Assembly: GCA_965221775.1 (NCBI GenBank)
Contig: CBDCSU010000006.1
Span: 1 to 64,000 of the forward strand
DNA: 64,000 nt
Origin: Candidatus Latescibacterota bacterium
GTDB lineage: Bacteria; Latescibacterota; UBA2968; UBA8231
Direction: 5' to 3'
Numbering within the stretch: position 1 is the stretch's first letter; every line of letters starts with the position of its first letter. A program made the position numbers and the translations under genes. The notes beneath the pieces are model-generated. The model searched no databases. It saw nothing but the letters and a program-made list of their open reading frames with translations, and was not told where the DNA came from. Shown piece by piece: positions 9,007 through 50,416 of the stretch.

Positions 9007-11145
9007 GTGAAGACTGCCAGACTCAACTGGGCCCGACCCCTGGCTATGGCCGGACTCCTCCTGTGCTGTGGCAACCTCCACGCCCAGGACCTGTCCAGCC
9101 TCTCCATCTCCACCTGGCCCTCCACGACCCAGTATCTCGGCTTTCCCGAGTTCCTCGAGAAGCAGGACGGCCAGATCCGGATCACCGCGGGCGGGTCGTA
9201 TACCCTGTACCTCAACGGAGAGCTGGTGGGCAGCGACGCCGATCCCGCCACCGTGGAGGTCTGGACGGACCTCTCCTTCAAGAAGAAGGAGAACCAGGTG
9301 GCCGTGGTGGTGGACCACGACGGCACTCTGACTCCGTACGGCGTCTATCTCGTCGTTGACGGGGAGCAGGAGCAGTTCGTCAGCTCTCCCACCGACCGCG
9401 CCATGCCGTGGTTCTGGTCCGGCGACGCCCTGCCCAACGAGGAGGACGGCTGGACCAAGCTGAAGCTGAGCAAGCTCGGAGAGCACGAGGAAGACGGACG
9501 GCTCATCACCTGGCAGGCGGCCCAGCGCGGCACCCTCGAGCCGGGGGACTACGCCGAGTTCGAGGACCTCGACCTGACCCGCGCCGGCAGCGTCGCCGGT
9601 TTCCCCGGAGGCCTGTCCGGCCAGGAGCAGGGGCTGCAGCTGCGCAGCCTGGCGGGGCAGAACATGGCCCTCAACTCGCGCACCTCCGACCCCAATCTGG
9701 TCGATGGCGACATCACCAGGGGTGTCGCCTTCCGCAAGGGAGCCGCCTCCCTGGGCCAGGGAGTGGCTACCGACCTCGGCCGGCTCCTGCTGCTGGAGCG
9801 GGTGCGCGTGATCACCCAGCCGCCGGGCCGCAACGACACCTACGAGGACCTCTCCATCCGGGGGTACAGCGTCCTCATCAGCAGGAACGGCATCAGCTAC
9901 CGCGAAGCGGGGGCCCGCAACCAGATCACCACCTACCGCGAGAGCGACATCGTGTTCTCGCCGACCCCGGCCCGCCACGTGAGCCTGAGGATCACCGAGT
10001 TCTCCTCCCGGGACGCCAATCCGAAAATCGGCGAGTTGGAGGTCTTCGCCCAAGGGAGGGACGACCGCGGCGGATACCTCTCCCAGCCGCTGGACCTGGG
10101 CTCCTCCGAGGTCAAGAACTTCGAGCGCGCCGTCCGCCATGGCGAGGTGCCCGCAAACACCGAGATGGACCTGCGCTTCCGCAGCGGCGACGATGGCGAG
10201 AGCTGGAGCGACTGGTCGCCGTGGAGCTCCCTGGCCGAGGTCGGACTGAACGTGCCCGAGCCGCGGAACTACCTCCAGTTCGAGGCGCGCATGCTGAGCC
10301 GGGTCCTCGACGCCACGCCGCGGCTCGACAGCCTCGTGGTCTGGTTCGAGGAGGGTCCCTTTCCGGTCTCCAGCGCCCTCGGCTCCATCTCGCCGGCCCG
10401 CGCCTCCATCGGCGTCGACACCGTGTTCACCTATACGCTGCAGCTGGAACTGGCGGAGACCGATGCGGGCGTAGGGCGCCTGGCCATCCTCACCCCCTGG
10501 CCGGCCCGGCTCGATGCCGGCGGCGTGCACGGTCTGGGCGACGCGGCGATCGCCTCCAGCTACGCCACCGCCGATTCCCTCGTGCTGATCCTCGATCCGC
10601 CGATCACCTCGGCCACGGGGACGACGGAGGTCGTCATCCCCTTCACCACGCGGCTGCTCTCCGCCAGCCACGACTTCCAGGGCCTGCTCTACGCTCCCGG
10701 GAGCGCCGCCTCCCTTCAGGTCGGGACGCGGGAAGGCACCGATCCGGCGACCGAGCTGCCGTTCACCTCCATCACCGAGGCGGCGGACTTCGGCATTCCC
10801 ATCCTCGACCACGTGCAGGCCCTGCCCGCGGTCTTCACCCCCAACGGCGACGGCGTCAACGACTCCGCGGTCCTGGCCTTCACCCTCGGGCGCGTCTCCG
10901 GGTCCTCGGTCGGCTTCGAGATCTACGATGTCGGCGGGACGTTGGTGCGCAGCCTGCCGCCGAGTCGTCTCGATCCCGGCAGCTACTCCCCCATCGGCGG
11001 CCGGGACGCCGGCCTGCCCGGACGTTGGGACGGCCGCGACGACGAGGGCAACCTGTTGCCGCCGGGCCTCTACCTGTACCGGATCGTCGTCGACCTGGAA
11101 CCGGATGACGAGGTGGCCACCGGCGTGGTCGGACTCGCCTACTGA
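9007..11145 (+). CDS. Secreted discoidin-like + FlgD-like CTD protein ('cargo' paralogue 1, 712 aa)
   Basis: GTG start after GAGG. Signal peptide. TDLGRLLLLERVRV...IGELEVF. C-terminus FTPNGDGVND...WDGRDDEG..LPPGLYLY...VVGLAY. Confidence 0.8.
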   Translation: MKTARLNWARPLAMAGLLLCCGNLHAQDLSSLSISTWPSTTQYLGFPEFLEKQDGQIRITAGGSYTLYLNGELVGSDADPATVEVWTDLSFKKKENQVAVVVDHDGTLTPYGVYLVVDGEQEQFVSSPTDRAMPWFWSGDALPNEEDGWTKLKLSKLGEHEEDGRLITWQAAQRGTLEPGDYAEFEDLDLTRAGSVAGFPGGLSGQEQGLQLRSLAGQNMALNSRTSDPNLVDGDITRGVAFRKGAASLGQGVATDLGRLLLLERVRVITQPPGRNDTYEDLSIRGYSVLISRNGISYREAGARNQITTYRESDIVFSPTPARHVSLRITEFSSRDANPKIGELEVFAQGRDDRGGYLSQPLDLGSSEVKNFERAVRHGEVPANTEMDLRFRSGDDGESWSDWSPWSSLAEVGLNVPEPRNYLQFEARMLSRVLDATPRLDSLVVWFEEGPFPVSSALGSISPARASIGVDTVFTYTLQLELAETDAGVGRLAILTPWPARLDAGGVHGLGDAAIASSYATADSLVLILDPPITSATGTTEVVIPFTTRLLSASHDFQGLLYAPGSAASLQVGTREGTDPATELPFTSITEAADFGIPILDHVQALPAVFTPNGDGVNDSAVLAFTLGRVSGSSVGFEIYDVGGTLVRSLPPSRLDPGSYSPIGGRDAGLPGRWDGRDDEGNLLPPGLYLYRIVVDLEPDDEVATGVVGLAY

Positions 11146-11180
11146 GCCCCGAGGATCCAGGGTCCACCCGACACGAATCC

Positions 11181-13877
11181 ATGCGCGCCTCTCTCGCCTC
11201 CATCTTCCTGATCCTGCTGGCCTCGGCGCCGCAGCCGTCGGAGGGACAGTTCCTGTCCCGGGACTTCCGGCGGCTGTGGGCCAACCAGATCTTCGAGAAC
11301 TACGGGGCCGCGGGGTACCGGGACTACGACCTGGAGGAGGAGAACCGGCGCTTCGACCTCTTCGGTGATCTCCTCATCGACGGCGTCGACATCATCGAGT
11401 ACAGCGAGATCCGGCGGGACGCCCCCGGCATCCGGGGCAGCTTCGAGACCCGCAACGCCCGCTACGAACGCTTCTTCAAGAAGCTGGTCATCGCCAACGA
11501 GGGGTTCGGCAACTGGTCGACGCGCCTGATCATCGGGGACCACATCCGCACCTTCTTCACCCCCATGACGCTGAACCTGCCCAACTACAACGGCATCCGC
11601 TGGGACGGCGCCTCCCGCAAGAGCCGCTTCAGCGTCATCGCCAGCCACCTGAGGGATCCGGTGGTGCTGGGCGGGGGGCTGTCGGTGGACCAGAACATCG
11701 AGGAGCGCCGGATCTGGGGGGGCAGCCTCTTCGGCGTCCACTGGGAGAGCCAGATCGGCGGCCTCCTCAAGCTCGGGACCACCTACGTCAACGTGCACCG
11801 CTTCGACTCCGAGGCGGCGGCCAGGGTCAACAGCCTCAAGGGCACGATCCCCGGCGTGATGCAGGGCGGGCTTCACAAGGTCTACGTGTTCTTCAGCGAC
11901 GACTCCCCCCACGACGCCTTCGCCGGCGCCGCCGTTCACGACCTCACCATGACCGTGGACGGGATGCCGGTGATGCCCCTGCGGGTCGGACGGATCGACG
12001 GGCTCATCGAGCAGATTCCCGTCACCTCCGATCCCACCAGCACGATCCTGCTCGAGCCCCACGAGGTCGACTACCTGCGCCGCAACCGCTCCTGGCTGCG
12101 CGCCGTGGTCGAGGCCAGCCGCGACCGGTTCTTCTCCTCCCTCCTCGACAAGATCACCACCGACATCAGCGCCGCGGCGATGGCCTCCAGGGGCGCCCCC
12201 CTGCGCGCCGACGGGACCGACGTCATCTTCTTCGAGTACGAAGTCCCCGACACGGTGAGTTCCATCGACTTCAGCGCCGTCCTCGCCGACGACTACAACG
12301 TCGACGTGGTGGGGGCCATGCAGGTGCCGATCCTGGCCCCGGGGGACGACGACTTCTACTACGACTGGTACAACGCCCGGCGCGCCCGGGGACAGCCCGG
12401 GCACGGGTCGAACCGGCACCGGGTCGACTTCCGCTACGGTTTCCCCACGGGGCTGACCGTCGCCGGCCTCGACTGGGACCTCGAGGCCCTCGGCTTCCAC
12501 CTGGAGGGGGAGTTCGCCCGCAGCCTGCGGTTCCTCCAGGTCCCCAACCGCGACGCCCAGCGCCACCGCCGGGAGAGCTCGACCTTCTACTTCCGCCTCA
12601 CCCGCCCCTTGCGCGACCGGGCGGAGCTGGGGTTCGAGTACTTCGACATGCCCGACGACTACACGACGGAGTTCCCCCTCTTCCTCAACCAGCGCACCAC
12701 CAAGTCGGTCGGCGGCCGGCTCTACACGCCCTTCGCCCTCGTGGAGGACAACGACGATCTCGACTTCTGGCCGGACCGGATCGAGCACAACGATCCGCTG
12801 GCTCCGTACTCCGATCCGCTGGCCAGCCGGTTCGGCTACCCCGGCAAGGGTGTCTACCCCGGCCTGGACCCGGACGACGACGGCGTCCTGGACTACAACC
12901 TCGACCTGGAGTTCGGCTCCGACTCGAGCCAGCCCTTCCTCGGCTACTACTCGGAGCCGTCCGGTCTGGTCTACGGCGACGACTTCGACAACAACGGCGT
13001 CGTCGACTACCGCGAGAACGACAACCTGCCGGACTACGCCTACCCCCTCGATCACCGGGGATTCCACGCCTACGGCACGGTGGAGGTGAACCAGCGAACC
13101 CAGCTGAAGACGGGGTTGTACCGGGTGCGCCAGCCGGTCATGGGCGGGCGCAACGACACCGAGTACGTGGAGGGACAGTACCGCCGGGACTGGCCGGGAC
13201 TGGGGTACCTGCGGCTGAACCACCGGGTCAAGTGGATGGAGGACACCATCCGCAACACCGTCTTCAACTTCGGCAGCGTCGGCTCCCTCCGGCCCGACCG
13301 GCTGGGCAGCCGCGACACGGTGAGCAACTACACCTTCTTCGAGACCGGCCTGATGGCGGTGCCCGACGTCAACCTGCGCAACATCATCACCTTCGGCTTC
13401 TCGGAGCTGGTCGGTGGTCCCGTGGCCGATCCCTTCATCACCAGGCCGGGCCGCTACACCGGCGTGACGGTGATGAACAAGATCGACTACACCTGGAGGC
13501 GGGGACGGCTGACCGTGCGGCCCCAGTTCAAGCACATCTACTCGCGCAGCACCTCGCCCGAGGAGACCCTGCCCTCTTCGCAGAGCCGCCAGGTGCGGCC
13601 GATCCTGCGGGCCGACTACCGGCTCACGCCCAAAACCGAGCTGAAGACCGGCATCCAGGGGTTGCCCTTCTGGCCTGAGAAGACCACCTACGCGGTGCGG
13701 CCCGAGAGCCAGTACACGCGCATGACCTACACGGCGATGATCCAGAACCGGAGCAACTACCTCGGCTACGATCTGGTCCTGCTCATGGGCACCTACCGCA
13801 CCGAGATCGACTACGCCGGCTCCGACCGGCCGGGCAACGGCTACCTCCAGTACTTCTTCCGGGTCTTCATCGGCTGA
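11181..13877 (+). CDS. Large secreted hypothetical protein, predicted outer-membrane beta-barrel with Asp-rich loop ('barrel' paralogue 1, 898 aa)
   Basis: Signal peptide, amphipathic strands, LVEDNDD...GVYPGLDPDDDG...RENDNLPDY. Ends YLQYFFRVFIG. Strong codon bias. Confidence 0.8.
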   Translation: MRASLASIFLILLASAPQPSEGQFLSRDFRRLWANQIFENYGAAGYRDYDLEEENRRFDLFGDLLIDGVDIIEYSEIRRDAPGIRGSFETRNARYERFFKKLVIANEGFGNWSTRLIIGDHIRTFFTPMTLNLPNYNGIRWDGASRKSRFSVIASHLRDPVVLGGGLSVDQNIEERRIWGGSLFGVHWESQIGGLLKLGTTYVNVHRFDSEAAARVNSLKGTIPGVMQGGLHKVYVFFSDDSPHDAFAGAAVHDLTMTVDGMPVMPLRVGRIDGLIEQIPVTSDPTSTILLEPHEVDYLRRNRSWLRAVVEASRDRFFSSLLDKITTDISAAAMASRGAPLRADGTDVIFFEYEVPDTVSSIDFSAVLADDYNVDVVGAMQVPILAPGDDDFYYDWYNARRARGQPGHGSNRHRVDFRYGFPTGLTVAGLDWDLEALGFHLEGEFARSLRFLQVPNRDAQRHRRESSTFYFRLTRPLRDRAELGFEYFDMPDDYTTEFPLFLNQRTTKSVGGRLYTPFALVEDNDDLDFWPDRIEHNDPLAPYSDPLASRFGYPGKGVYPGLDPDDDGVLDYNLDLEFGSDSSQPFLGYYSEPSGLVYGDDFDNNGVVDYRENDNLPDYAYPLDHRGFHAYGTVEVNQRTQLKTGLYRVRQPVMGGRNDTEYVEGQYRRDWPGLGYLRLNHRVKWMEDTIRNTVFNFGSVGSLRPDRLGSRDTVSNYTFFETGLMAVPDVNLRNIITFGFSELVGGPVADPFITRPGRYTGVTVMNKIDYTWRRGRLTVRPQFKHIYSRSTSPEETLPSSQSRQVRPILRADYRLTPKTELKTGIQGLPFWPEKTTYAVRPESQYTRMTYTAMIQNRSNYLGYDLVLLMGTYRTEIDYAGSDRPGNGYLQYFFRVFIG

Positions 13878-16693
13878 TGGCGCGCATCCTTCGACATACG
13901 GCGGCTGCGGCCACGGCCTGCTGGCTGATGACGGGAGCTGTCTGTCCGGCGCAGGCGCAACTGCTGTTCAAGCCCGGCGAGCCGTACGTCAACTACGCCT
14001 ACGAGGGCTACCGGAGCTACCAGAACCTGATCTTCGCCCGGGACCGCCTGCCCGTCTTCGATCCCCTCGGCCAGTTCGTTATGAACGGCACCCAGGTCTT
14101 CAAGCTCCAGGAGACGCGGACCGTCGCGCCCGCGCCAGGCACCCTCATCTCCAAGCCCAGGCTCTACCAGAACTACCTGAACCGCCTGCTCATCGCCGAC
14201 GACGCCTACGCCGGGGCCACGAGCAAGCTCATCATCGGCGACCACGTGCGCACCAAGTTCACCTCCCTCACCCTCGACATGGCGTCGATGAACGGACTGC
14301 GCTTCGACACCAGCTTCGAGAGCGGCTCCGCGATCCTGGCGGTCTCCCGCGTGGACCGGCCGATCTTCGAGGCCCTGGGGCAGCAGAACGTCGACCACCG
14401 GGTCCACGGCGTGGAGGAGCGCTACGAGACCCGGCCGCGATGGTCGACCTACCTTCTCGGCGGCGACCTGCGCACCCAGTTGCCGGGCCTCGACATGGGG
14501 TTGAGCTGGGTCAACCAGTACCGCACCGACAGCTTCAAGGATCTGAACGACAACAGCTGGAAGGGCACCCTCCCGACCACCGGCGCCCCTCCCGAGTGGA
14601 TCGTGGTGCGCGTCGCCGACCAGGAGCCCGACGACGAGGTGGGAGTGCGCGTCAAGGTGCCCACCATCACCCTCAACGGCCGCCGGCTGCAGCACCATCT
14701 CGGACCCTACGACAACCTGGATCCGGACGCGCCCACCCTCACGGTGACCGAGCACTCCGACCGGACGATCATCCCGCCGATCCTCTGGCGGGATGCCCAG
14801 GATCCGATCATCGAGCACGACCACGTCTCCCCCACACCCCAGGGCTTCTACGAGACCCGGGGTCCGGGGAGCCTGCTGTTCTGGTTCCGGGTCCCCCACA
14901 CCTTCGATGACGCCGCCGAGGCCGAGGTGATCAACCAGGCGTACGTCGATCTGGACGTGGCGGGGGACTACGTGATCGAGCTGTCGGAGGTCTTCGACGG
15001 CATCTCCAACAACCCGGCGACCTATTTCTACACCGCCGCCCGGTCGCGGGGCCGGCCGGACAACCTCGCCGACTTCCGCCGCGTGCGGGCCCACTACGGC
15101 CGCCAGACCGGCCGCACCCTGGCCAGCGCCCACCTGAACCTGGACGTCAAGGGCTTCATGCTGCACACGGAGTACGTGCGCAACTTCGCCTTCCGCGCCT
15201 ATCCGGCGCTGTTGAGCACGGAGCTGGAGCACTACCAGAACGAGAGTCAGGCGTGGTTCGCCGTGGTCCGCCGCGACTGGAACGGCTTTGCCGTCGGCGG
15301 CGAGGTGTTCAACGTGGACGCCGCCTATTCCACCGTGCTCACGGTGCAGGACGACGCCTTCAACACCAGCGCCGGCTTCCCCTCCGCGCCCTTCAACTAC
15401 CCGCAGCAGATTCACGAGCCGCGGCTGCCGACGAAGGTCGGCCGCAACATCACCGACCAGACCTACACGCGCGAGTTCGACACCGTCGACGACAACGACG
15501 ACAAGGACCAGTACCCGGACACCTACTACCTGCGCAAGACCACCAACCCGGAGACCGGGGGGCGCTTCATCCAGGATCCGGACGGCGTCTTCCCGGGGCT
15601 CGACGCCGACCTGAACGGCCGGCCCGACATCAACGAGAACAACAACCTGATCCCCGACTACTACGAGCCCTTCCTGCTCTACAAGGTCAATCCCGACGCC
15701 TACGAGTGGGGCGAGGACCTCAACAACAACGGCAAGATCGACGAGCGCGAGAACGACCTGAAGTCCGACTACCCCTACGACATCGACCGCCGCGGATTCC
15801 ACGGGTTCTCCCGGCTCCTTCACGGCCGCGCCACCGTGACCGTCGGCCACCACAGGTCGTGGGCGCCCTTCGGAGGCGGCCGCGCCGAGTCGACCTACGG
15901 CAAGGTCGAGTACGAGCGCCGGATCCCCTTCCTGGCGGAGATCTACGGGGTGGAGCGGCTCAAGCGCGTGCGCGACGACGTGGCCGACGACATCTTCGGC
16001 CTGGGGCGGGACCCGATCTACTTCGAGCCCGACATCATATCGATCGTGCCCCTCACCGAGGAGCAGATCTTCAATCCCCTCGGCGAGGCCCAGCTGCTCA
16101 AGGACCCGCTGACGATGCGCGACAGCTGGGTGAACACGCTCTACACGCGGACGCGCTACATCGGCGCGCCGAACCTCAACGTGGAGCTCTCGGTCAAGTA
16201 CGAGACCAACCTCCAGCAGAGCACCTCCCTGCAGCCGGAGAACCGCGTCTCCGACCTGGCCACGGTGGTCAAGGCCGACTACACGTGGAACCCCTGGAGC
16301 CGGCTGCGTGTCGTTCCGCAGCTCAAGTGGATGCGCCAGCGCCTGCAGGACGACGAGGAGCGGATCCTGGAGATCGCCGAGGACTACCTCTACCCGATCC
16401 TGAGGCTGGAGTACCCCCTCTCCTCGCGCACCGAGATCAAGCTAGGCGCCCAGGGCTTCCCCTTCCTTCCGGGCACCTACCGCAACGAGGCGGCCCCGGG
16501 GGTGGACTTCGATTCCCAGGTGTACCTGGCGCTGCTGAGCAACACCTCCACCTACGTGGGCTACCAGATCAACGTCAACCTGGGCTACGAGAAGCGCATC
16601 CGGACCTTCCTCGACGAGAGCCGGTCCGATCAGGACATCGACCTGTCGCGCCTCTTCCTGCGCGTCATCGTCGGCCTGAGGCCGCAGTTCTGA
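13877..16693 (+). CDS. 'Barrel' paralogue 2 (938 aa)
   Basis: TGATG coupling to the upstream gene. Signal peptide (AQA|Q). Colinear motifs LIIGDHVRTKFTSLT, VDDNDD, GVFPGLD, RENDLKSDYPY. Confidence 0.8.
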   Translation: MARILRHTAAAATACWLMTGAVCPAQAQLLFKPGEPYVNYAYEGYRSYQNLIFARDRLPVFDPLGQFVMNGTQVFKLQETRTVAPAPGTLISKPRLYQNYLNRLLIADDAYAGATSKLIIGDHVRTKFTSLTLDMASMNGLRFDTSFESGSAILAVSRVDRPIFEALGQQNVDHRVHGVEERYETRPRWSTYLLGGDLRTQLPGLDMGLSWVNQYRTDSFKDLNDNSWKGTLPTTGAPPEWIVVRVADQEPDDEVGVRVKVPTITLNGRRLQHHLGPYDNLDPDAPTLTVTEHSDRTIIPPILWRDAQDPIIEHDHVSPTPQGFYETRGPGSLLFWFRVPHTFDDAAEAEVINQAYVDLDVAGDYVIELSEVFDGISNNPATYFYTAARSRGRPDNLADFRRVRAHYGRQTGRTLASAHLNLDVKGFMLHTEYVRNFAFRAYPALLSTELEHYQNESQAWFAVVRRDWNGFAVGGEVFNVDAAYSTVLTVQDDAFNTSAGFPSAPFNYPQQIHEPRLPTKVGRNITDQTYTREFDTVDDNDDKDQYPDTYYLRKTTNPETGGRFIQDPDGVFPGLDADLNGRPDINENNNLIPDYYEPFLLYKVNPDAYEWGEDLNNNGKIDERENDLKSDYPYDIDRRGFHGFSRLLHGRATVTVGHHRSWAPFGGGRAESTYGKVEYERRIPFLAEIYGVERLKRVRDDVADDIFGLGRDPIYFEPDIISIVPLTEEQIFNPLGEAQLLKDPLTMRDSWVNTLYTRTRYIGAPNLNVELSVKYETNLQQSTSLQPENRVSDLATVVKADYTWNPWSRLRVVPQLKWMRQRLQDDEERILEIAEDYLYPILRLEYPLSSRTEIKLGAQGFPFLPGTYRNEAAPGVDFDSQVYLALLSNTSTYVGYQINVNLGYEKRIRTFLDESRSDQDIDLSRLFLRVIVGLRPQF

Positions 16694-16778
16694 TGCCATG
16701 AGAGCCGTGATCGCACACAGGGCCGGGGACCGGGGGAGGCGCCGCCGTGGAGGCCGTCCCCGAGGGTGGGAGCCCTCC

Positions 16779-23717: not shown

Positions 23718-24104
23718 ATGTTGAAGAGAGCGGGCGTGAGCATCGCCCTGGCGGGCGTCATCCTCGCCTGGGGGTGCAGCGACGACATCGAGCTGCCCAC
23801 GGCCTACCACGAAGGCCTCCTGCCGAGGCCCTCCGACGTGGCCGCCTCCGTGGAGGACGGCGCCATCCACGTATCCTGGGCGATCGCGTCCGAGGCCAAC
23901 GTGCAGGGCTTCGTCGTCGGCTTCACCGATTCCAGCGGCGCCGAGCACACCCGGTCGGTGGAGGACCCGGCGGCCAGGGCCCACTCGGAGCAGGAGCTGG
24001 ACGTCAGTCCGGGACTCTCGTACCTGGTCCGGGTGTGGGCCTTCGATGCCCGGGGCTTCTTCGGCCCCCGGTCCGTGGCCGACACCCTGGTGGTCCAGGA
24101 GTGA
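23718..24104 (+). CDS. Lipoprotein with fibronectin type III-like domain
   Basis: Lipobox LAWGC. PSDVAA..IHVSW...PGLSYLVRVWAFD..G.FGPRS. Confidence 0.8.
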   Translation: MLKRAGVSIALAGVILAWGCSDDIELPTAYHEGLLPRPSDVAASVEDGAIHVSWAIASEANVQGFVVGFTDSSGAEHTRSVEDPAARAHSEQELDVSPGLSYLVRVWAFDARGFFGPRSVADTLVVQE

Positions 24105-30512: not shown

Positions 30513-30514
30513 GG

Positions 30515-42431: not shown

Positions 42432-42460
42432 GGACGGGCCCCGTGTGGCGGGACCCGTCC
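42432..42460. terminator. Hairpin between convergent stop codons (possible bidirectional terminator)
   Basis: GGACGGGCCCCG-TGTGG-CGGGACCCGTCC fills the gap; no U tract. Confidence 0.5.
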
Positions 42461-44547
42461 TAGTAGACCACGGCGACGAGGCGGTGCACCTCGTCGTTCC
42501 GGTGGTCGCCGTCCACGGCGACCCTGAACAGGTAGAGACCGGGGGGGACGAGCTGTCCTGCGTCGTCGGTGCCGTCCCAGGCCTTGTCCTCGTAGCGCCC
42601 GTTGCTCTCCAACCCCTGGCTGACGACTCTCACCAGCCGGCCGCCCAGGTCATAGACCTTCAGCGCCACCTGGCGAGGCGCCTCCAGCGACAGCAGGCTG
42701 TAGCTCAGGGACATGGCGTCGTTGACGCCGTCGCCGTTGGGGCTGAAGGGATTGGGCCGCAGCTCCACCTGCCCGAGCAGCCGCCCGCCCAGCAGGGTCG
42801 GACTCAGGACCGTGGTGCCCGACAGGGCCGCTTCGTCCCCCGGGGCCAGCTGGCCCGTGTCGCCCCCCACCAGGGGCTGGATGGCCGGCTCACCCACCCC
42901 GTCCGCCGGCGACAGCTTGGCCGACCCGGTGAAATCGGTGCTGTAGGTGAGGACGTCGCTGCGGAAGTGGATGCGAACCTCGGTCCCGTCCCGAGAGATG
43001 GGGGGGAAGCCGATCTCGAAGCGGTCCTCCCTGACCTCCACGATGCGGAAGCCGCCCTCGTCGAGGGTGTCCGCAAGGCTGGAGAACGTCCGGCCGGATA
43101 CCGGCTGTCCCTCGCTGTCGAGGACCCGCACCTCGTCGATCGCCGCGACTCGCAGGGGCGTGCGGATCTCCAGGCGGTCGAATCCCAGCAGGTCCTCCGA
43201 CTCGAAGCGGGCCCGCACGGCGAGGGTGAAGGGCACCGCGCGGATCTCGTCCACCTCCCTCGGGAAGACCTCCGCCTTGAGCGAATCGGCCAGCGGCGAG
43301 CGGAGCACATCGAAGCTCAGGGACTCGATCGCCCTCGCCGCCTCCAGGTCGCTGCTCTCGAAGGCGATCTGGAACTGCATGTAGCGCCGCGGGCTCGGGG
43401 AGGTGATCAGGGCCCCCGGGGTGTTGGCCACCTCGGCGTCGAAGGGCGTGCTGAAGGGGCTCCAGTTGACCAGGTCGTCCTTGACGGGGCCGGCGTTCCA
43501 CTGCTGGCCCTGGGCGTCGAAGACGGGCAGCTTCTTGTACTCCTCCAGGCTCAACTCGAGCGAGGGGTCCTCCACCGACAGGGGGATCTCCTCCGGGTCG
43601 GCCTGCCCGTGGAGGGTCCGGGTGAAGACGAAGGGATCGGCGTCGGTGCCGGTGCGGGTGCGGATGCTCACCGCCGAGAACCGGGGGTCTCCCAGGACCT
43701 GCTCCGTCCAGCGGAGCTGGTGCCACACGGCCGGCTGTCCCGCGTCGAAGATGTCGGAGACGTAGGCGGCCGTGGCCAGGAACCCGGTGCCGAAGACCTC
43801 GAACTCGTCGATCTCGTAGGAGATCGTCGACTTGGAGCGCAGGCGGATGTGCTGAACGTACCGCGGCGGGTCGAGCCGCACATCGACGACGGGTTCCTTG
43901 TTCTCCTCCTCCGCCGCCACCGGCTCGCCCCAGATCGGCAGGCCCGCCTGGGTGAGGGCGAGGCCGTCGTTCGTGTACAGCTCGAAGGAGCGCAGGAAGT
44001 CGTTCTGGAACGGTGTCGCCGGCGCTATCTGCACCGTGTTGCGCGGATAGAAGCGGATCCTCTCGACTCCGAAGCGGCCCCCCAGGTTGAGGATGACCAG
44101 GATACCGAGGGAGTTGAGGTTCTTGCGCTCGAAGGCTTCCAGCTCCCCGCCCGGGGTGATCAGCTCCTCCAGGGCCTGCTTGAGGTCGAGGGGCTTGAAG
44201 GTGCCGCTGAAGTCGAAGACGTTGGGAGCGGTGATCTCACCGCCGCGCTCGAGGGTGCCGTGGGCCACGTTCTGGCCGGGCGCGATGCGCAGGGGAAGGA
44301 TGGCGCCGGGGTGGTCCTGGCTGTCGAAATCGAGGAGGGCTCCCGGGGCGTTGCCCTCGAGGAGGTTGTCCGACTCCAGCAGGGAGCGGTGCCGGGCGGG
44401 GATCGTGGCGACCACGGCGGAGCCCCCTCCGGCCCAGCCGAACTCGCCGCCGGCGCCGATGGTGACCGTCTCCGCAGCCGGCGCGGCCTCCGACAGGCCG
44501 ATGCCGGCCAGGACCGCCGCGGCGATGAGAGGAGATGTGCGATTCAT
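42460..44547 (-). CDS. Secreted discoidin-like + FlgD-like CTD protein ('cargo' paralogue 3, 695 aa)
   Basis: Signal MNRTSPLIAAAVLAG. NLGGRFGVERIRFYPR, IDEFEVFG, PNPFSPNGDGVND...LVAVVY. Confidence 0.85.
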   Translation of the reverse strand: MNRTSPLIAAAVLAGIGLSEAAPAAETVTIGAGGEFGWAGGGSAVVATIPARHRSLLESDNLLEGNAPGALLDFDSQDHPGAILPLRIAPGQNVAHGTLERGGEITAPNVFDFSGTFKPLDLKQALEELITPGGELEAFERKNLNSLGILVILNLGGRFGVERIRFYPRNTVQIAPATPFQNDFLRSFELYTNDGLALTQAGLPIWGEPVAAEEENKEPVVDVRLDPPRYVQHIRLRSKSTISYEIDEFEVFGTGFLATAAYVSDIFDAGQPAVWHQLRWTEQVLGDPRFSAVSIRTRTGTDADPFVFTRTLHGQADPEEIPLSVEDPSLELSLEEYKKLPVFDAQGQQWNAGPVKDDLVNWSPFSTPFDAEVANTPGALITSPSPRRYMQFQIAFESSDLEAARAIESLSFDVLRSPLADSLKAEVFPREVDEIRAVPFTLAVRARFESEDLLGFDRLEIRTPLRVAAIDEVRVLDSEGQPVSGRTFSSLADTLDEGGFRIVEVREDRFEIGFPPISRDGTEVRIHFRSDVLTYSTDFTGSAKLSPADGVGEPAIQPLVGGDTGQLAPGDEAALSGTTVLSPTLLGGRLLGQVELRPNPFSPNGDGVNDAMSLSYSLLSLEAPRQVALKVYDLGGRLVRVVSQGLESNGRYEDKAWDGTDDAGQLVPPGLYLFRVAVDGDHRNDEVHRLVAVVY

Positions 44548-44554
44548 GCCCGCT

Positions 44555-44617
44555 AGGAAAAACCGCCGCGGGAGGACTGTCAATTGCCTTGTCCCCCCGG
44601 CATGGCCGCCGTACCGT
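44555..44617. promoter_or_regulatory. Back-to-back divergent sigma70-like promoters
   Basis: Plus strand: TTGTCC(44589)-17-TACCGT(44612). Minus strand: TTGACA(44583-44578)-17-TTTCCT, with a weak -10. Confidence 0.45.
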
Positions 44618-44671
44618 TTTGCCCCGAAGCCGGTCCGGAGCCCGGCCTTGCCTGACGGAGAGACCTCGCCC

Positions 44672-46825
44672 ATGCGACACCTCCTCGACTGCTGCCTCAT
44701 CCTCGGCCTTTCCCTCCAGGCCGGCGCCGCCTTCGCCCGAACCGAGTACGTCCTCGGCGGCGCCGAGGGCAACCCCTGGCAGGCGGCCCTGTCCGAAGAC
44801 GCCGCCGGCGAGTTCGTCGTCTTCGACGAGGAGGGTGCGGCGGTGCGCCGCGTCGCCGTGCCCACAACCCCCTACGGCGAGGGGGGTGACCGCGTTGTCG
44901 AGTACGAGGCCTCTCCGGGCAGCATCCTCCCCCTGTACCTGCATCCCGAACAGAACCTGGCCCTCACCGATCCCGACTCCCCCGAGATCAGGATCCCCCT
45001 TCCCATCACCCGTGGACTCGCCTGGACGACGGACGGCTGCTCCGCCATCGACGATCAGATCCGGGCGGTGAAGAGACAGTTCGACGGCGATGTCACCACC
45101 GCCCATTTCCGCCGGTTCACCCCGGGGACCAGCATCTTCGCGGGCGGCGGCCGCATCGTCGCCGGGGTCACCGGCGAGGGTTGGAAGAACGCCGTGGTCC
45201 TGAACTTCGGCGCCGCCGTCCCCGTCAACCGGATCCGGTTCTTCCCGCGCCTGAGCCGCGTCGAGGACCGGCTGCTGATCGAGGAGCTGCAGGAGCCGAG
45301 CCCCCCCCTCGAGGAGTTCGGCGAGAGCAGCTTCGCCGCCAACTTCGTCGAGGGCTACGAGATTCGGGTGGCCGACGACAGCCAGCGCTTCGCCAACAGC
45401 CCCTGCGACGCCGTCGGCTTCTCCCGCGGCCTGCGCTGGATCCGGACCGGCGACGCCAGTCTCGAGGTCCTGGAATCCAGGCCCGAGAACCTCGAGCGTG
45501 TCGTCGACCTGACCTTCCCCACCCGGTCGGTGCGCTACATGACCTTCAAGACCTTCCCCCTGCGCAACTGGGAGGTGGCGGAGTTCCAGGTCTTCGGCGA
45601 GGGCTACGTGGAGCACACCTCCTTCCGGACGCAGATACTCGACTTCGGCCAGGACTCGGGGAGCGCCGTCAACTGGGGCAAGATCCGCTGGAGCGGCGAG
45701 GCCCCCGAGGGCACGCGCGTCGAGATCCGCACGCGCACGGGGCACACACCGGACCCCAACTTCTACGTCGCCGAGAGCGTCAACGGCGACATCCGCAGGA
45801 TTACCACCGAGGAGTACTTCGCCATCGACGCCACGGGGCGTCTCGACCCCCGGCCCGACGTGGACAACTGGAGCTTCTGGTCGCCGCCGTACACCTTCGA
45901 GGCGGGCCTGCGCGACTCCTCGGCCGCCGCCGAGAGCTGGGAGGACGGCACCTCACTGCTGTCCCCGGGGCCGAGCCGGTACCTGCAGATCGACATCCAG
46001 CTGTACAGCACCTTCACCCGGGCGGCGCGCCTGGACCAGTTGTGGCTCCAGTTCAGCGAGTCCCCCCTGGCGCGGGAGGTCCTGGGCGAGATCTGGCCCA
46101 CGGAGGTGACCTCCTTCGATCCCACCCCCTTCACCTACGTGGTGCGGCCCGACTTCGAAGCCTCGGACCTCGGCTTCAACCGCCTGGAGATCCTCACCCA
46201 CAGTCCCGTCGATCCCGATCGCCTCTCCCTCTCCGTCGACGGCGCGCCGGTCGACTTCGATCTCCATCCCCCCGACCTGCGGGAAGACCGGCTCATCCTG
46301 TCCTTCGACGAGCTCAAGGGACGCTCCGACCGCCTGAAGCCGATCGAGGCGACCTTCGAGGTTCCGGTCCTGCGCTATGGAGCCGAGTTCCGCGGCTGGG
46401 TCTTCCACAGCGACGACCCGGACCGCATCCGCCAGCAGGTTCGTCCCGGCAACGCGACCTTCCGGTTCGGCGGCAACGTGCTGGCCGTGGCCACGCCCCT
46501 GGAGGGCGGTCTCCTCGGCGATCTGACCGCTTCGAGCCGGGCCATCTCCCCCAACGGGGACGGCGTGAACGACGAGCTCCTGCTCACCTACGAGCTTCGC
46601 CAGTTGACCGTGCAGCGGCCCGTGCAGCTGCGCATCTACGATCTGGGGGGCCGCCTGGTCCGCGTCCTGGAGCCCCGCTCCGGGGCCAGCGGCCTCGGCA
46701 GCCAGAGCTGGAACGGAAGGGACGGCGCAGGTGAGTTGGTGGCGCCCGGAACCTACCTCTACGAAGTAGCCCTCAGCGCCGAGGAAACCGAACGCCGGGT
46801 CGGCGTGGTGTCCGTGGTGTACTGA
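44672..46825 (+). CDS. Secreted discoidin-like + FlgD-like CTD protein ('cargo' paralogue 4, 717 aa)
   Basis: GGAG RBS, signal peptide (AFA|R). NFGAAVPVNRIRFFPR, VAEFQVFG, ISPNGDGVND...VVSVVY. Confidence 0.85.
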   Translation: MRHLLDCCLILGLSLQAGAAFARTEYVLGGAEGNPWQAALSEDAAGEFVVFDEEGAAVRRVAVPTTPYGEGGDRVVEYEASPGSILPLYLHPEQNLALTDPDSPEIRIPLPITRGLAWTTDGCSAIDDQIRAVKRQFDGDVTTAHFRRFTPGTSIFAGGGRIVAGVTGEGWKNAVVLNFGAAVPVNRIRFFPRLSRVEDRLLIEELQEPSPPLEEFGESSFAANFVEGYEIRVADDSQRFANSPCDAVGFSRGLRWIRTGDASLEVLESRPENLERVVDLTFPTRSVRYMTFKTFPLRNWEVAEFQVFGEGYVEHTSFRTQILDFGQDSGSAVNWGKIRWSGEAPEGTRVEIRTRTGHTPDPNFYVAESVNGDIRRITTEEYFAIDATGRLDPRPDVDNWSFWSPPYTFEAGLRDSSAAAESWEDGTSLLSPGPSRYLQIDIQLYSTFTRAARLDQLWLQFSESPLAREVLGEIWPTEVTSFDPTPFTYVVRPDFEASDLGFNRLEILTHSPVDPDRLSLSVDGAPVDFDLHPPDLREDRLILSFDELKGRSDRLKPIEATFEVPVLRYGAEFRGWVFHSDDPDRIRQQVRPGNATFRFGGNVLAVATPLEGGLLGDLTASSRAISPNGDGVNDELLLTYELRQLTVQRPVQLRIYDLGGRLVRVLEPRSGASGLGSQSWNGRDGAGELVAPGTYLYEVALSAEETERRVGVVSVVY

Positions 46826-46862
46826 AGGTGCGAAGGGGCGCTGGCAGGCCCGTCCAGAAATC

Positions 46863-46891: not shown

Positions 46892-46966
46892 GGTGCCCTG
46901 CATTGGAGTCTCCTATCCCCCCAAGAGCGGCCTGTGGCCGCATTTCGCAATCAGGAGGATCCCGCC

Positions 46967-47857
46967 ATGAAACGCTTTGTCCTGTGTGCGTCGCTGGTCG
47001 TCGCCGTATCCGCCGGTGCCCACAATCCGCCGGGAGAGCTGTTCTTCGCCGCTCAGTTCCCCGACAACCTCGTGCCCCAGATGGACGGCGATCTGTCCGA
47101 CTGGGACATCGTGCCCATCGATGGCCCATACTGGGTCGGCAACGACCGGCTCTACTCCCCCGTGGCCGACATCCAGCCGGTGGGCCGGGGCGAGATCGAC
47201 GCCAGCGATATCAACATCCGCAACATCATCGGCTGGAACGACAACCTCAACAAGCTCTACTTCGCCACCTCCGTGTTCGACAACGTCCACAACCTGGACC
47301 GCGAGAACCCCTCGGCCTTCTGGCAGGACGACGCCTGGGAGGTGGAGGTCAATCCCGACCACACGCCCACGGAGGAGCACAACCTCGAGGGCGAGCCAGC
47401 CAACAATTTCAGCTACAAGTGGGCCGTGCCCCCTGTGGAAGGCGCCTACCAGTTCTACCGTCCCAACCGGGCCATCCCCTGGTTCGTCGACGGTTCCCAG
47501 TGGATCGAGTTCGGCTGGGACTTCGACGGCGACCAGTTCGGCGAGAGCACCTACTACTACGAACTGGCCATCACCCCCATCCTGAGCATGCCCAGGGGTG
47601 ACGACGTCGACGAGAGCAGCGTCGTCGTCCACGACCTCTCGGAGGAAGAGGTCATCCACATCTCCGTGACCGTAGGCGACTTCGATGAGCCTTGCACCGA
47701 GTGCGCCCTGGAGAGCTACCAGGGCTTCTGGACGATGTCGCCCGAGAGCTGCTGCACCGCCACCAACGACGTCGTCATGGCCCAGGTGGAGCCCTCCATC
47801 GCCGCCCTGACCGCCGTCGAGGACATCAGCTGGGGCCAGATCAAGGCCGCCCACTGA
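46967..47857 (+). CDS. Acidic secreted CBM9/DOMON-like protein with C-terminal TAVExxSWGxIK tail (296 aa)
   Basis: AGGAGG RBS, signal peptide. PQMDGDLSDW, GWND..NKLY, DAWEVEV, YYYELAI. Ends TAVEDISWGQIKAAH. Confidence 0.8.
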   Translation: MKRFVLCASLVVAVSAGAHNPPGELFFAAQFPDNLVPQMDGDLSDWDIVPIDGPYWVGNDRLYSPVADIQPVGRGEIDASDINIRNIIGWNDNLNKLYFATSVFDNVHNLDRENPSAFWQDDAWEVEVNPDHTPTEEHNLEGEPANNFSYKWAVPPVEGAYQFYRPNRAIPWFVDGSQWIEFGWDFDGDQFGESTYYYELAITPILSMPRGDDVDESSVVVHDLSEEEVIHISVTVGDFDEPCTECALESYQGFWTMSPESCCTATNDVVMAQVEPSIAALTAVEDISWGQIKAAH

Positions 47858-47868
47858 ACAAGCACCGC

Positions 47869-49581
47869 TTGCGCCGCCGCATCCGTGGCAGCGACTCCTC
47901 CCCCGGGCGCCTGCTCCAGGCGCCCGGGGGCTTTTTCTTTGCCCTGGCGACAATCCCCTCCCTGCTGTCGTGCGCCGACCCGGTCCCGGACCGGGCAACG
48001 GAGGGAGGCCCGCTGTTCGTCGACGTGGCCGACGATGCGGGGCTGCACCGGCCCCACGTGGGCGGCACGGCGGAGAAGGGCTACATCGTGGAGGCCAAGG
48101 GTGGAGGCGTCGCCGTCCTCGACGCCGAGGGCGACGGCGATCTCGATCTCTACTGGGTGAATGGGGCGACGCTGGAAGATCCCCTGGGGGCGGGAAACGC
48201 CCTCTACCGCAACGACGGCAAGGAGGGGTTCCGCGATGTGGCCGCCTCCGCGGGCGTCGTGGGCCGCGGCTGGGGCATGGGGGCCCTCGCCGCCGACTTC
48301 GACAACGACGGTGACTCCGACCTCCACGTCACCTGCCTCACCCACAACCTGCTGTTCCGCAACGACAGCGGCCGCTTCGCGGAGTGGGGGTCCCGGGCCG
48401 GTGTGGACCTGCCCCTGTGGAGCACGGGAGCAGCGGCCGGCGACTACGACCTGGACGGGGATCTCGACCTCTACGTGGCCAACTACGTGGACTTCGACCC
48501 CGACAGCGTCGCCCACCTCGGCACCCGCTGGAAGGGTGTTCCCGCCTTCATCGGCCCCCTGGGCCTGCGCGCCCTCCCCGACCGCCTCTACCGCAACGAG
48601 GGCGACCGGTTCACCGACGTGAGCGCTCCCTCCGGCGTGACCGGCGTGGACCCGGGTTACGGGCTGGGCGTGCTCTTCGCGGACCTCGACGTCGACGGCG
48701 ATGCCGACCTCTACGTGGCCAACGATTCGTCGCCCAACTTCCTCTTCAGCAACGATTCGCGTGGCCGGTTCAGCGAGACGGGCCTGGGGGCGCGCGCAAG
48801 CCACGGCGCCATGGGCAACGCCCAGGCCGGCATGGGGGTCGCCGCCGGCGACTTCGACGGCGACGGACTCCCCGACCTGCTGGTGACCAACTTCGACGAC
48901 GACTACAACACCCTCTACCAGAACCGGGGCGGCGCCACCTTCGAGGATGTCAGCTTTGCCGCCGGCCTGGGGCGCGAGGGCCTCCCCTTCGTCGGTTTCG
49001 GGGCCGCCTTCCTCGACTACGACCGCGACGCCGACCTCGATCTCTTCGTCGCCAACGGCCACGTCTACCCCCAGATCGACACGTCGGGCACGAACTCGAC
49101 GTACGCCCAGGCCGATCACCTCTTCGCCAACGTCTCGGGCCGCTTCGAGCGGGTCCTCCACGACGGTTCGGACCCCTTCGGCCCGCCTCGAGTCAGCCGC
49201 GGAGCGGCGGCCCTCGACTTCGACGACGACGGCGACCTCGACCTGTTCGTGGCCCACCTCGACGACAGGCCCGCCCTCTACCGCAACGACGCGCCGGGAG
49301 GCAACTGGCTGGGACTCCGGCTGGTGGGTGTTCGCAGCAACCGGGAGGGGATCGGGGCCCGGGTGGCCGTCCACGCCGGAGGCCAGCGGCAGGTTCGTGA
49401 GAGCCGGCGCGGCAGCAGCTTCCTCGGCAGCGAGGACCCACGCCTCCACTTCGGGCTGGGCGCGGCCACTCTCGTCGACAGCCTGACCGTCCACTGGCCC
49501 GGGGGCGGCGTGCAGGTCCTCACCGCCGTCTCGCCGAATCAGTACCTGGTTGTGACACAAGCGGCTTCCGCCAGCCGTTGA
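47869..49581 (+). CDS. CRTAC1/ASPIC-UnbV FG-GAP protein, probable lipoprotein (start uncertain)
   Basis: LFVDVA, YIVEAKGGGVAVLD, GWGMGALAADFDND, AGMGV, NGHVYPQ, SEDPRLHFGLG; LLSC lipobox. Confidence 0.85.
   Translation: MRRRIRGSDSSPGRLLQAPGGFFFALATIPSLLSCADPVPDRATEGGPLFVDVADDAGLHRPHVGGTAEKGYIVEAKGGGVAVLDAEGDGDLDLYWVNGATLEDPLGAGNALYRNDGKEGFRDVAASAGVVGRGWGMGALAADFDNDGDSDLHVTCLTHNLLFRNDSGRFAEWGSRAGVDLPLWSTGAAAGDYDLDGDLDLYVANYVDFDPDSVAHLGTRWKGVPAFIGPLGLRALPDRLYRNEGDRFTDVSAPSGVTGVDPGYGLGVLFADLDVDGDADLYVANDSSPNFLFSNDSRGRFSETGLGARASHGAMGNAQAGMGVAAGDFDGDGLPDLLVTNFDDDYNTLYQNRGGATFEDVSFAAGLGREGLPFVGFGAAFLDYDRDADLDLFVANGHVYPQIDTSGTNSTYAQADHLFANVSGRFERVLHDGSDPFGPPRVSRGAAALDFDDDGDLDLFVAHLDDRPALYRNDAPGGNWLGLRLVGVRSNREGIGARVAVHAGGQRQVRESRRGSSFLGSEDPRLHFGLGAATLVDSLTVHWPGGGVQVLTAVSPNQYLVVTQAASASR
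47900..47940 (+). terminator. Rho-independent terminator
   Basis: 14 bp stem CCCCCGGGCGCCTG/CAGGCGCCCGGGGG followed by CTTTTTCTTT. Confidence 0.85.
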
Positions 49582-49606: not shown

Positions 49607-49630
49607 GGTCGCAACGCCAGGGAGGATCCG

Positions 49631-50416
49631 ATGCTTGCCGAGACCGTCCACCGCCGACTGCCTACCTGCCTCCAGGGCCTGCGGGCTGCCACGGCGGTCC
49701 CAGCCCTCGCCTTGGCGCTGCTCACCGCCTGCGGGGGCGGCTACCACCACTACGCCGGCCCCTTGCGTCCCATCGACGACCAGGACCCCGCCATGACGAT
49801 CGCCGATGACGGCGGCGTCACCTACGTGCAAGGCCGGCTCGAGGTCCGGATGCGGCCCCTGACCGATGAAGAGCTGAACCGGCAGTTCGCCTCCCTGTCG
49901 AACTCGGGACCGCGGTCGACCAACCCCTACACCTTCGGCGACCACCAGTTCTACGAGGGCCAGGAGACCCGCCAGCGCTTCACGGTCTTCAGCCTCGGCG
50001 TCAAGAACTACGCCTACCCCAAGGTGCAGCTCGACCCGACACGCATCGAGCTGGCCGCGTCCAACGGGCGCACTTACTGGAGCCTCCGCCACAAGCAGCT
50101 CGAGCGCTACTACCGGGCCTACGCCATCGGCTTCCGGGGCAACGAGTACGCCCGGTTCCGGGCGCGCCAGGATCTGCTGCTCAACACGATGTTCCCCTCC
50201 GAGCCGATCTTCAGCGGCCAGGAGGTCGGCGGATTCGTGGTCTTTCCCGCCCTCCATCCCGACGTGGACCACATGCGGGTCGTCCTCCACGGTGTCAACC
50301 TGCGCTTCGACTACCGCAACGAGCCGGTCGAGAGCGTCGACATCGCCTACGAGTTCGTGCGCGACGTGGGCCGCCTCTACGCCGACGGCACCGTGGAGCT
50401 CACGGCGCGGGACTGA
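49631..50416 (+). CDS. Hypothetical lipoprotein, paralogue of 25396..26175
   Basis: Lipobox LTAC. Motifs STNPYTFG, RFTVF, PKVQLDP, ERYYRA, GNEY. Confidence 0.82.
   Translation: MLAETVHRRLPTCLQGLRAATAVPALALALLTACGGGYHHYAGPLRPIDDQDPAMTIADDGGVTYVQGRLEVRMRPLTDEELNRQFASLSNSGPRSTNPYTFGDHQFYEGQETRQRFTVFSLGVKNYAYPKVQLDPTRIELAASNGRTYWSLRHKQLERYYRAYAIGFRGNEYARFRARQDLLLNTMFPSEPIFSGQEVGGFVVFPALHPDVDHMRVVLHGVNLRFDYRNEPVESVDIAYEFVRDVGRLYADGTVELTARD

Follow-up and report, generated by a model that had tools for sequence, protein, structure and literature searches.

A conserved Latescibacterota locus with a candidate ExbBD-powered trans-envelope machine, an anchored DUF4159 protein and giant outer-membrane barrels

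We analyzed a 64,000-nucleotide stretch of DNA (the window) from a Candidatus Latescibacterota bacterium (GTDB UBA2968; UBA8231), comprising positions 1-64,000 of the forward strand of contig CBDCSU010000006.1 (C6) in assembly GCA_965221775.1. This assembly spans 5.36 Mb in 6 contigs and is 96.8% complete. Positions 6945-50416 of the window consist of two modules, a conserved core (6945-28727, genes A to N) and an accessory cassette (28869-50416, genes O to Y). The core contains genes for an ExbB/ExbD-type motor, a giant tetratricopeptide-repeat (TPR) protein, a membrane-anchored DUF4159 protein, a lipoprotein, and three very large predicted outer-membrane barrels. With a probability of roughly 0.55, we consider it a trans-envelope machine of the class that includes the Ton, Tol, and Agl-Glt systems. 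An earlier note, made from the sequence alone, had read the whole of 9007-50416 as one envelope machine; this holds for the core as a conserved, co-inherited unit, and fails for 28869-50416.

As the window has a G+C content of ~69%, at which mechanical lists of open reading frames (ORFs) are full of shadows, genes were picked by third-position GC and frame. Families were assigned by Pfam and NCBIfam scans of the window proteins. These scans and paralogue comparison located every gene that the earlier note had listed, while the unit proved to begin one gene upstream of its proposed start at 9007, with A at 6945. Intergenic gaps from A to N are each 56 nt or less, with overlaps between C and D (1 nt), M and N (1 nt), and J and K (17 nt), and a gap of 141 nt separates N from O. 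The description of the run as co-directional applies to all genes but one, U, which lies on the minus strand. Close homologues were named Latescibacterota, with a few metagenome-assembled genomes (MAGs) labelled otherwise.

Synteny was sampled at 25 Latescibacterota loci around orthologues of I, the DUF4159 gene, extending 10 kb to each side. Wherever both were visible, I and the lipoprotein gene J were adjacent, with the sole exception of L021. All three motor genes (L, M, and N) were found within 10 kb in 20 of the 25 loci, and L only in one. D-E-F stood upstream in 19 of the 20 loci with a detected barrel, the remaining one (L025) being rearranged. Of the five loci without a detected barrel, four were cut on that side and one (L006) was rearranged. 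The giant TPR gene F was downstream of the barrels in 19 of 20 barrel-holding loci, as well as in L033, L035, and L037, and H was kept after G in most loci.

Four loci from distant families (G006, G027, G019, and G001; GC 43-59%; 24-58% identity) shared the order (B)-C-D-(E)-F-G-(H)-ExbB-ExbD-ExbD-I-(I)-J. G follows F in these families too, and the motor lies mid-cluster, immediately before the DUF4159 gene. The genome under study carries a paralogous copy of the core (A'-B'-C'-D'-E'-F'-I'-J', C5:352705-371097) and a partial copy on C3. Paralogues of A precede B-like genes at C5:369091-371097 and on C3, and B-like genes lie upstream of barrels at the C5 locus, on C3, and in L033. After J', where the window has K, there is an FGE-sulfatase-family gene (C5:351862-352701, minus strand; 148.6 bits). 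GldK/PorK belong to this fold family.

Across the phylum, the barrel profile matched 94 of 151 genomes, J matched 92 of 151, and I-type DUF4159 matched 35 of 61. Of 14 families sampled, the same 10 had all three. Barrel, J, and I-type DUF4159 (in that order) were not found in families f2 (0/30, 0/30, and 0/16), f3 (0/19, 0/19, and 0/3), or f8 (0/5 each). Family f4, which lay outside the 61-genome sample, yielded neither barrel (0/2) nor J (0/2). As relatives are not independent, co-occurrence was read at the level of families, 10 with all three and 4 without. Synteny and co-occurrence, proposed in the earlier note as checks, were thus positive for the core (25 loci, four distant loci, and 10 of 14 families). 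The motor, TPR scaffold, anchored DUF4159 protein, lipoprotein, and barrels are one conserved, co-inherited unit.

The core barrels C, D, and E and the cassette barrel S are paralogous to one another (24-32% identity; E 1e-32 to 1e-71). None had a Pfam match at E up to 0.01, including Plug and TonB_dep_Rec, and the 18,950 NCBIfam models yielded no match either (E up to 0.1). An AlphaFold2 (AF2) model of D (pLDDT 73.4, pTM 0.74) showed ~28-30 strands beginning near residue 58, by our own count of the DSSP line, and an inserted beta domain. The tandem paralogues that the earlier note had called barrels are represented by a protein which models as a very large outer-membrane beta-barrel, and none of the four matched a TonB-dependent receptor in these scans. 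Residues 27-57 of D are conserved across the family, with Y37 and Y45 nearly invariant, and were modelled at low confidence. The middle third of C, D, E, and S holds a conserved Asp/Asn-rich stretch (e.g. D 538-625), also modelled at low confidence, whose DxDxDG-like motifs resemble calcium-binding loops.

The best structural matches to the D model were Deinococcus SlpA (Foldseek E 1.7e-11; VIA-align Z 14.5) and Shewanella MtrB (E 1.8e-8; Z 12.9), and the resemblance in fold is real. Unlike SlpA, the locus had no SLH domain in the scans; SlpA_C was weak in three barrel homologues (20.1, 22.7, and 26.6 bits against a cut-off of 35) and had no match in the barrels of the window. A porin-cytochrome reading modelled on MtrB was ruled out because no protein of the locus contains a CxxCH motif.

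The barrel profile identified 20 full-length paralogues in this genome and one contig-end fragment. A quick maximum-likelihood tree of 28 barrels (IQ-TREE, SH-aLRT support only) divided the sequences into an S-type clade (12 rows) and a core clade (16 rows), each with support 100. The latter fell by gene position into C-type (6 rows, support 98), D-type (5 rows, support 100), and E-type (4 rows, support 99) barrels. As each position clade contains members of both this genome and distant families, the three core barrels are old, non-redundant subunits. The barrel family comprised 964 clusters at 50% identity among 1.84 billion proteins. The source names seen were solely Latescibacterota, Handelsmanbacteria, MAGs labelled Gemmatimonadetes/Gemmatimonadota, and unclassified "bacterium".

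The motor genes encode one TolQ-like subunit (L) and two TolR-like subunits (M and N), the latter sharing 32.5% identity. Their best NCBIfam models were tolQ for L (86.7 against a cut-off of 221) and tolR for M and N (62.4 and 58.9 against 127.3), and they fell short of the exbB and ExbD equivalog cut-offs. TolQ was also the nearest solved structure to L (60 bits), followed by ExbB (48 bits). For I, a sequence search of the PDB returned uncharacterised 4i66 as the sole solved relative. From its build and gene position, we propose that I is a TonB/TolA-like transducer. Another ExbB-ExbD-ExbD set of this genome (C5:336699-345671, minus strand) is followed by genes for a 273-aa protein of no family, a TamB-like protein (1454 aa), and an Omp85/POTRA protein.

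DUF4159 was also present in 12 of 41 Armatimonadota genomes, at 18 places. ExbB-ExbD lay directly upstream of the DUF4159 ORF at 5 of the 13 places read, with a giant TPR gene in front at 2 of these. One Armatimonadota MAG, found in the search with I, has the order giant TPR, ExbB, ExbD, and a protein composed of a transmembrane segment, a long linker, and DUF4159. The genome under study holds a further small ExbB-ExbD-DUF4159-type unit beside a cassette (C5:282963-288846). Together these units indicate that DUF4159 in the gene position of TonB/TolA is no local accident. I-type DUF4159 is strongly multiplied in some families of the phylum, often in tandem (matches per genome: G001, 29; G003, 15; G012, 12; G032, 14; G046, 13), compared with 4 matches in this genome.

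Neither J nor its cassette paralogue Y belongs to a Pfam or NCBIfam family. The AF2 model of J (pLDDT 88.4) is a YcdA/YjhA-like beta-sandwich (Z 8.6), matching generic beta-sandwich lipoproteins only. Eight ORFs of the genome belong to the J/Y family, of which six are Y-type (short and without a tail). Long forms of ~400 residues, present in distant families and as J' in this genome, carry an extra C-terminal TonB_C-like (AgmX/PglI) domain. The corresponding model, NF033768, reached its cut-off of 40 in 5 of 7 long forms including J' (61.8, 62.2, 53.6, 40.3, and 63.8 bits) and gave 31.8 and 35.6 bits in the other two. The C-terminus of the gliding protein GltG was the second-best match of this tail. 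Pfam TonB_C, compared with 8 long forms, was over its cut-off in 2, weaker in 5, and without a match in 1. A predicted complex of I (residues 100-413) and J (16-259), built from separate alignments, scored 0.00 with no tool verdict, and counts neither way on binding.

Among the remaining core proteins, A scored 68.7 bits with Pfam FlgD_ig and 29.9 with the Por_Secre_tail model TIGR04183 (cut-off 23). B may start at 8851, which has a good ribosome-binding site, or at 9007/9046, which gives a signal peptide. Its ESM-Atlas neighbours are clusters with F5_F8_type_C plus CHU_C/FlgD_ig. F matched many TPR families and was YfiO/BamD-like in Pfam, with tol_pal_ybgF repeats at 209.8 bits and PorW/SprE at 103 (cut-off 250). 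H and K could be assigned to no family of Pfam or NCBIfam.

A, U, and V carry type IX secretion system (T9SS) tails: A passed the sorting-domain cut-off of TIGR04183 and U and V those of CHU_C and FlgD_ig (cut-off 27), with B and R below. SprA_N, full PorU genes, and PorV-like matches all lie outside the window, which speaks against the locus being a T9SS. SprA is encoded at C5:95050-101562. Two PorU genes exceeded the curated cut-off, one accompanied by a PorV-like gene (148 bits) at C5:943115-948131 and the other at C4:1166543-1169647. At least 48 further matches to the PorU-type C-terminal domain (CTD) were found genome-wide, including those of A, R, and U, the only PorU-model matches inside the window. 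SprA_N was present in 143 of 151 genomes of the phylum (f2, 29/30; f3, 19/19), and so also in families without a barrel match. Given these SprA, PorU, and PorV-like genes, the many tails, and the presence of SprA where barrels were not found, export of A, B, R, U, and V is most simply explained as the work of this separate T9SS, and probably not of the barrels. The earlier idea that the machine itself exports the FlgD-tailed proteins is accordingly not upheld by the gene distribution.

GldL, GldM (two models), and GldN had no match anywhere in the genome, but the control genomes were equally silent. L/M/N with I as a substitute for GldLM in the T9SS was rejected as the principal explanation because SprA is present in f2, f3, and f8, where barrel, J, and I-type DUF4159 were not found. 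Whole-genome searches placed no TonB_C, TonB-dependent receptor barrel, SprA_N, or PorV-like match in the window, in agreement with the earlier note. Its "no TonB" is correct for the window and incorrect for the genome, which has a canonical ExbB-ExbD-TonB locus and ~24 TonB-dependent receptors elsewhere.

The accessory cassette (O to Y) had been assigned to the same machine. Its genes instead form a loose cassette that is repeated at about ten loci here (~8-10 copies per genome), and in most other genomes no such cassette stands next to the core. Cassettes contain a SurA-like peptidyl-prolyl isomerase (PPIase), 1-2 S-type barrels, R/U/V-type CTD proteins, and copies of W, X, Y, and T. O-like genes stand beside S-type barrels at 6 other loci of the genome, R/U-like genes adjoin S-type barrels at other cassettes, paralogues of T occur in 4 other cassettes, and CBM9-like W copies are also present. 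Among the 25 Latescibacterota loci, only those of the 3 closest relatives have O-P-Q after N. Of 61 phylum genomes, 20 had a match to the N-terminal domain of V, with 0 of 13 in family f10; as f10 has the core, this cassette cargo is accessory. PDB sequence searches with R and U matched the FlgD-like tail only. The divergent genes U (minus) and V (plus) are separated by a 124-nt intergenic region (44548-44671), which marks the sole strand switch within 9007-50416. The cassette may be a separate multi-copy client set that shares the core motor, as many receptor loci share one Ton system.

Table 1. Genes of the core (A to N) and the accessory cassette (O to Y), in window coordinates
Gene	Position	Strand	Description
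A	6945-8837	+	Exported, two FlgD_ig-like domains and T9SS type-A C-terminal sorting domain
B	8851-11145	+	Surface-protein candidate of the B/R/U/V family, weak CHU_C/FlgD_ig C-terminal domain
C	11181-13877	+	Giant outer-membrane barrel (predicted), position-1 type
D	13877-16693	+	Giant outer-membrane barrel (predicted), position-2 type; the one modelled
E	16698-19859	+	Giant outer-membrane barrel (predicted), position-3 type
F	19862-23110	+	1082-aa TPR protein, hydrophobic N-terminus, proposed periplasmic scaffold
G	23135-23692	+	Small membrane/exported protein, weakly DUF5683-like (Pfam 23.6, cut-off 26.7)
H	23718-24104	+	Small lipoprotein, AWGC lipobox
I	24140-25381	+	N-terminal transmembrane helix, basic and Pro-rich linker, C-terminal DUF4159 (105 bits)
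J	25396-26175	+	Beta-sandwich lipoprotein, short form without TonB_C-like tail
K	26159-27085	+	Exported; CsgG/FlgT_C/LpoB-like from ESM-Atlas language-model features alone (0.93)
L	27142-27885	+	MotA/TolQ/ExbB-family stator subunit (Pfam MotA_ExbB 99.4 bits)
M	27904-28317	+	ExbD/TolR-family subunit (Pfam ExbD 94.9 bits)
N	28317-28727	+	ExbD/TolR-family subunit (Pfam ExbD 106.8 bits)
O	within 28869-34326	+	SurA-like PPIase lipoprotein; cassette start
P	within 28869-34326	+	TPR lipoprotein
Q	within 28869-34326	+	TPR and FG-GAP/ASPIC lipoprotein
R	34415 onward, upstream of S	+	F5/8 type C domain and CTD, below cut-off
S	37503-40178	+	S-type giant barrel (predicted)
T	40212-42431	+	Polytopic N-terminal part (weak PMT_2, 17.4, cut-off 26.1) and strong TPR
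U	42460-44547	-	CTD protein, divergent from V; FlgD_ig 35, CHU_C 31.6 bits; signal peptide at 44547 start
V	44672-46825	+	CTD protein, paralogue of U, B, and R; CHU_C 33.0, FlgD_ig 38.5 bits
W	46934-47857	+	CBM9-like, weak
X	47869-49581	+	FG-GAP/ASPIC
Y	49631-50416	+	Short J-type lipoprotein; J paralogue, 37.6% identity, E 1e-32

Several genes flank the two modules. A minus-strand gene at 1833-3887 encodes a DUF6785 plus DUF6784 membrane protein (433.8 and 106.6 bits) that may be a partner in the inner membrane. This genome has paralogues of it next to several barrel cassettes, and other genomes have them close to the core. Two CBM9-family proteins (5844-6782 and 52997-53758; 42% mutual identity) flank the region. 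Downstream and outside the finding, a polysaccharide biosynthesis/export locus (54032-63239) encodes a weakly Polysacc_synt-like membrane protein, two GT4 glycosyltransferases, a Wzz/GNVR protein, and a Poly_export/SLBB protein (minus strand).

Building on a gene set that is conserved and co-inherited, on the fold of the barrels, the long-J tail, the ExbB-ExbD-DUF4159 adjacency in two phyla, and the T9SS tails of A, U, and V, we propose the following mechanism for the core machine. L, M, and N would form a proton-driven stator in the inner membrane. This stator would act on I, whose membrane anchor and extended basic, proline-rich linker lead to a globular DUF4159 domain instead of TonB_C. I would work with the always-adjacent lipoprotein J and with F as periplasmic scaffold, such that I, J, and F bridge the periplasm. 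Force would then arrive at the three non-redundant barrels, with their conserved N-terminal segment as the proposed contact point. The barrels may in turn partner with the surface proteins A and B, which were most likely placed on the surface by the separate T9SS (SprA, PorU, and the PorV-like protein) and not by the barrels. As to output, we tentatively suggest that the machine holds, gates, or moves lectin-like surface proteins in adhesion, gliding, or display. Such holding or movement would fit the adjacent pairs of CTD-protein and barrel genes, the AgmX/PglI-type tail, and the 1+2 motor.

The earlier note had compared the locus with Myxococcus AglRQS, a comparison that now gains a sequence link in the AgmX/PglI-type TonB_C-like domain at the end of long J orthologues. 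The Agl-Glt system includes one TolQ-like and two TolR-like proteins, very large TPR proteins, several outer-membrane barrels, and a surface adhesin. The core resembles this system of Myxococcus xanthus (and its Nfs paralogue) in the 1+2 motor, which is also found in distant families, and in its very large TPR protein, several barrels, and surface proteins. A 1+2 motor set may also be usual for Ton loci of the Fibrobacterota-Chlorobiota-Bacteroidota (FCB) group. In contrast to Agl-Glt, the TonB_C-like domain is here carried by a lipoprotein, not by a transmembrane protein, and the J of the window is without it; the barrels belong to a different, far larger family, and the surface proteins bear T9SS tails. 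The equivalog cut-offs of GltG (maximum 38 against 650) and GltE (50.9 against 225) were not approached, and we know of no DUF4159 counterpart in Glt.

As in a Ton system, ExbB/ExbD genes are directly followed, in the distant families, by a gene whose product has a membrane anchor, a long linker, and a globular C-terminal domain; outer-membrane barrels are the proposed targets, and there are many barrel loci for few motor loci. The system differs from Ton in that the third gene ends in DUF4159 and not TonB_C, and in that barrels of ~28-30 strands without Plug/TonB_dep_Rec take the place of the Plug and 22-strand barrel of receptors.

Gliding and T9SS loci of Bacteroidota offer a further parallel. 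In the parts of the literature available to us, a type B CTD adhesin is described with an adjacent PorP/SprF-like barrel and a GldLM-driven track (PMC9143113, PMC12635249). To the extent of these descriptions, both settings have a CTD surface protein beside a cognate barrel in many copies per genome, and a 5:2-type motor (here predicted) acting on outer-membrane proteins. The motor of the locus is TolQR-like, unlike GldLM, and its barrels are about three times larger than PorP/SprF and without an NCBIfam match. The NCBIfam library presumably includes a PorP/SprF model. As C and S contain no cysteine, a disulfide tether like that of SprF and GldK cannot apply to them.

The main competitor to surface-protein handling is powered uptake resembling that of a polysaccharide utilization locus, which the earlier note had also allowed for. 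As an output of the machine it is nearly as probable as surface-protein handling, and as an account of the whole locus it is less likely than our preferred reading. Here the giant barrels would be gated importers of large substrates (glycans or proteins), opened by I, J, and the motor in the way that receptors are opened by TonB. CTD proteins with discoidin/CBM9-like domains would capture substrate, the cassettes would be substrate-specific receptor sets, and the DUF6785/6784 protein would perform the inner-membrane step. The tail on long J forms, ExbB-ExbD directly before I in distant families, and the ratio of about ten S-barrel cassettes to 2-3 motor loci per genome are all consistent with import, as are F5_F8_type_C in R and in the nearest clusters of B, CBM9 in neighbours, and the recurrence of DUF6785/6784 genes beside cassettes. 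Saccharolytic and proteolytic capacity is also reported in the available portion of a published Latescibacteria genome analysis (PMC4454575). Against import, the Pfam scans recognised no glycoside hydrolase, lyase, or peptidase family in core or cassette, the barrels are without a Plug match, and the genome is already equipped with canonical Ton genes and receptors. T9SS tails furthermore indicate surface-anchored partners, and not soluble binding proteins.

Two other accounts fared worse. The leading idea of the earlier note, barrels as a new ExbBD-powered secretion pore for FlgD-tailed proteins, is improbable. A CTD gene does adjoin a barrel gene at 10 of 11 barrel loci of the genome, in our own reading of gene order, and the barrels would be of sufficient size, being on the scale of SlpA and MtrB and below that of SprA. 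Ton-powered protein export through a barrel also has a precedent in Oar/PopC, in the part of that source available (PMC6434023). However, the tails match T9SS sorting-domain models, with A over the TIGR04183 cut-off, and the genome has the SprA, PorU, and PorV-like genes together with at least 48 such tails. Families f2 and f3 retain SprA without a barrel match, which argues that T9SS-type secretion in the phylum is independent of the barrels. Very unlikely is a Tol-Pal-like envelope-integrity or division system, in which L/M/N, I, the CpoB-like repeats of F, and J would tie the outer membrane to the wall and the barrels would be abundant structural proteins, as SlpA is. It would account for the tolQ/tolR models being the best for L, M, and N, for TolQ as nearest solved structure, for F meeting the tol_pal_ybgF cut-off through its repeats, and for SlpA as top structural match. 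TolB_N was not found in the whole genome, with E. coli and Caulobacter positive as controls, such that canonical Tol-Pal may be missing. The motor proteins are nevertheless far under the tolQ/tolR cut-offs, and scans of the window proteins detected no SLH, OmpA, or Pal-type wall-binding domain (general scans for the OmpA family, with no dedicated Pal/TolA search made). Absence of the whole set from 4 of 14 families, near-complete genomes included, would be odd for a housekeeping system, as would 2-3 copies with surface-protein genes attached.

Several observations weigh against our preferred reading of the core as a Ton/Tol/Agl-Glt-class machine. No motor gene lay within 10 kb in 4 of the 25 loci, and two others had the K-L-M-N block moved and inverted, at a distance of a few kilobases. 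As generic TolQ/TolR-like proteins, L, M, and N could serve another system. K was undetected in the four distant-family loci and is lineage-specific. The J-tail profile matched neither J nor any other ORF of the window, leaving I, J, and K alone to link motor and barrels at this locus. About one-third of the D model is of low confidence, including the N-terminal segment treated as a possible TonB-box analogue, and its TM-scores with known barrels are just ~0.2. Contact of A and B with the barrels is hypothetical, and the distribution of U/V-type cassette proteins does not follow that of the barrels (0/13 in f10). Co-occurrence counts overstate the support, as they include related genomes, and estimated contamination of the MAG is 7.75%. 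The organism is uncultured, and the reading is built on sequence comparison and predicted structures.

The kind of system is known, namely a proton-driven stator with a transducer and barrels, while the searchable literature has no description of the transducer domain or of the barrel and lipoprotein families. A full-text search (supplements outside its reach) returned DUF4159 by name only in the 2015 Pfam database paper, and nothing linking DUF4159 with ExbB or Latescibacteria with type IX secretion. The system is likewise not described in the available part of the Latescibacteria single amplified genome paper.

Proton-driven 5:2 stators include Mot, Exb, Tol, GldLM, Agl, and Zor. Few output partners are known for them, and DUF4159 is a new candidate. 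At its most speculative, and with less confidence than for the machine itself, our proposal is that membrane-anchored DUF4159 proteins may be a third class of energy transducer for ExbBD/TolQR motors, in at least two phyla. In Latescibacterota, working with a giant TPR scaffold and a lipoprotein that has a TonB_C tail, they might drive hetero-oligomeric, plugless barrels of 28-30 strands that carry or move T9SS-delivered lectin-like proteins. The layout is modular, with few motor loci and many barrel/surface-protein cassettes. If true, this would amount to a surface-transport or gliding apparatus that was assembled independently, or else to a powered outer-membrane gate of a new kind, in which barrel/adhesin cassettes can be interchanged. 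It provides a testable hypothesis for the function of DUF4159 and for cell-surface handling in an abundant, uncultured phylum of marine and sediment habitats.

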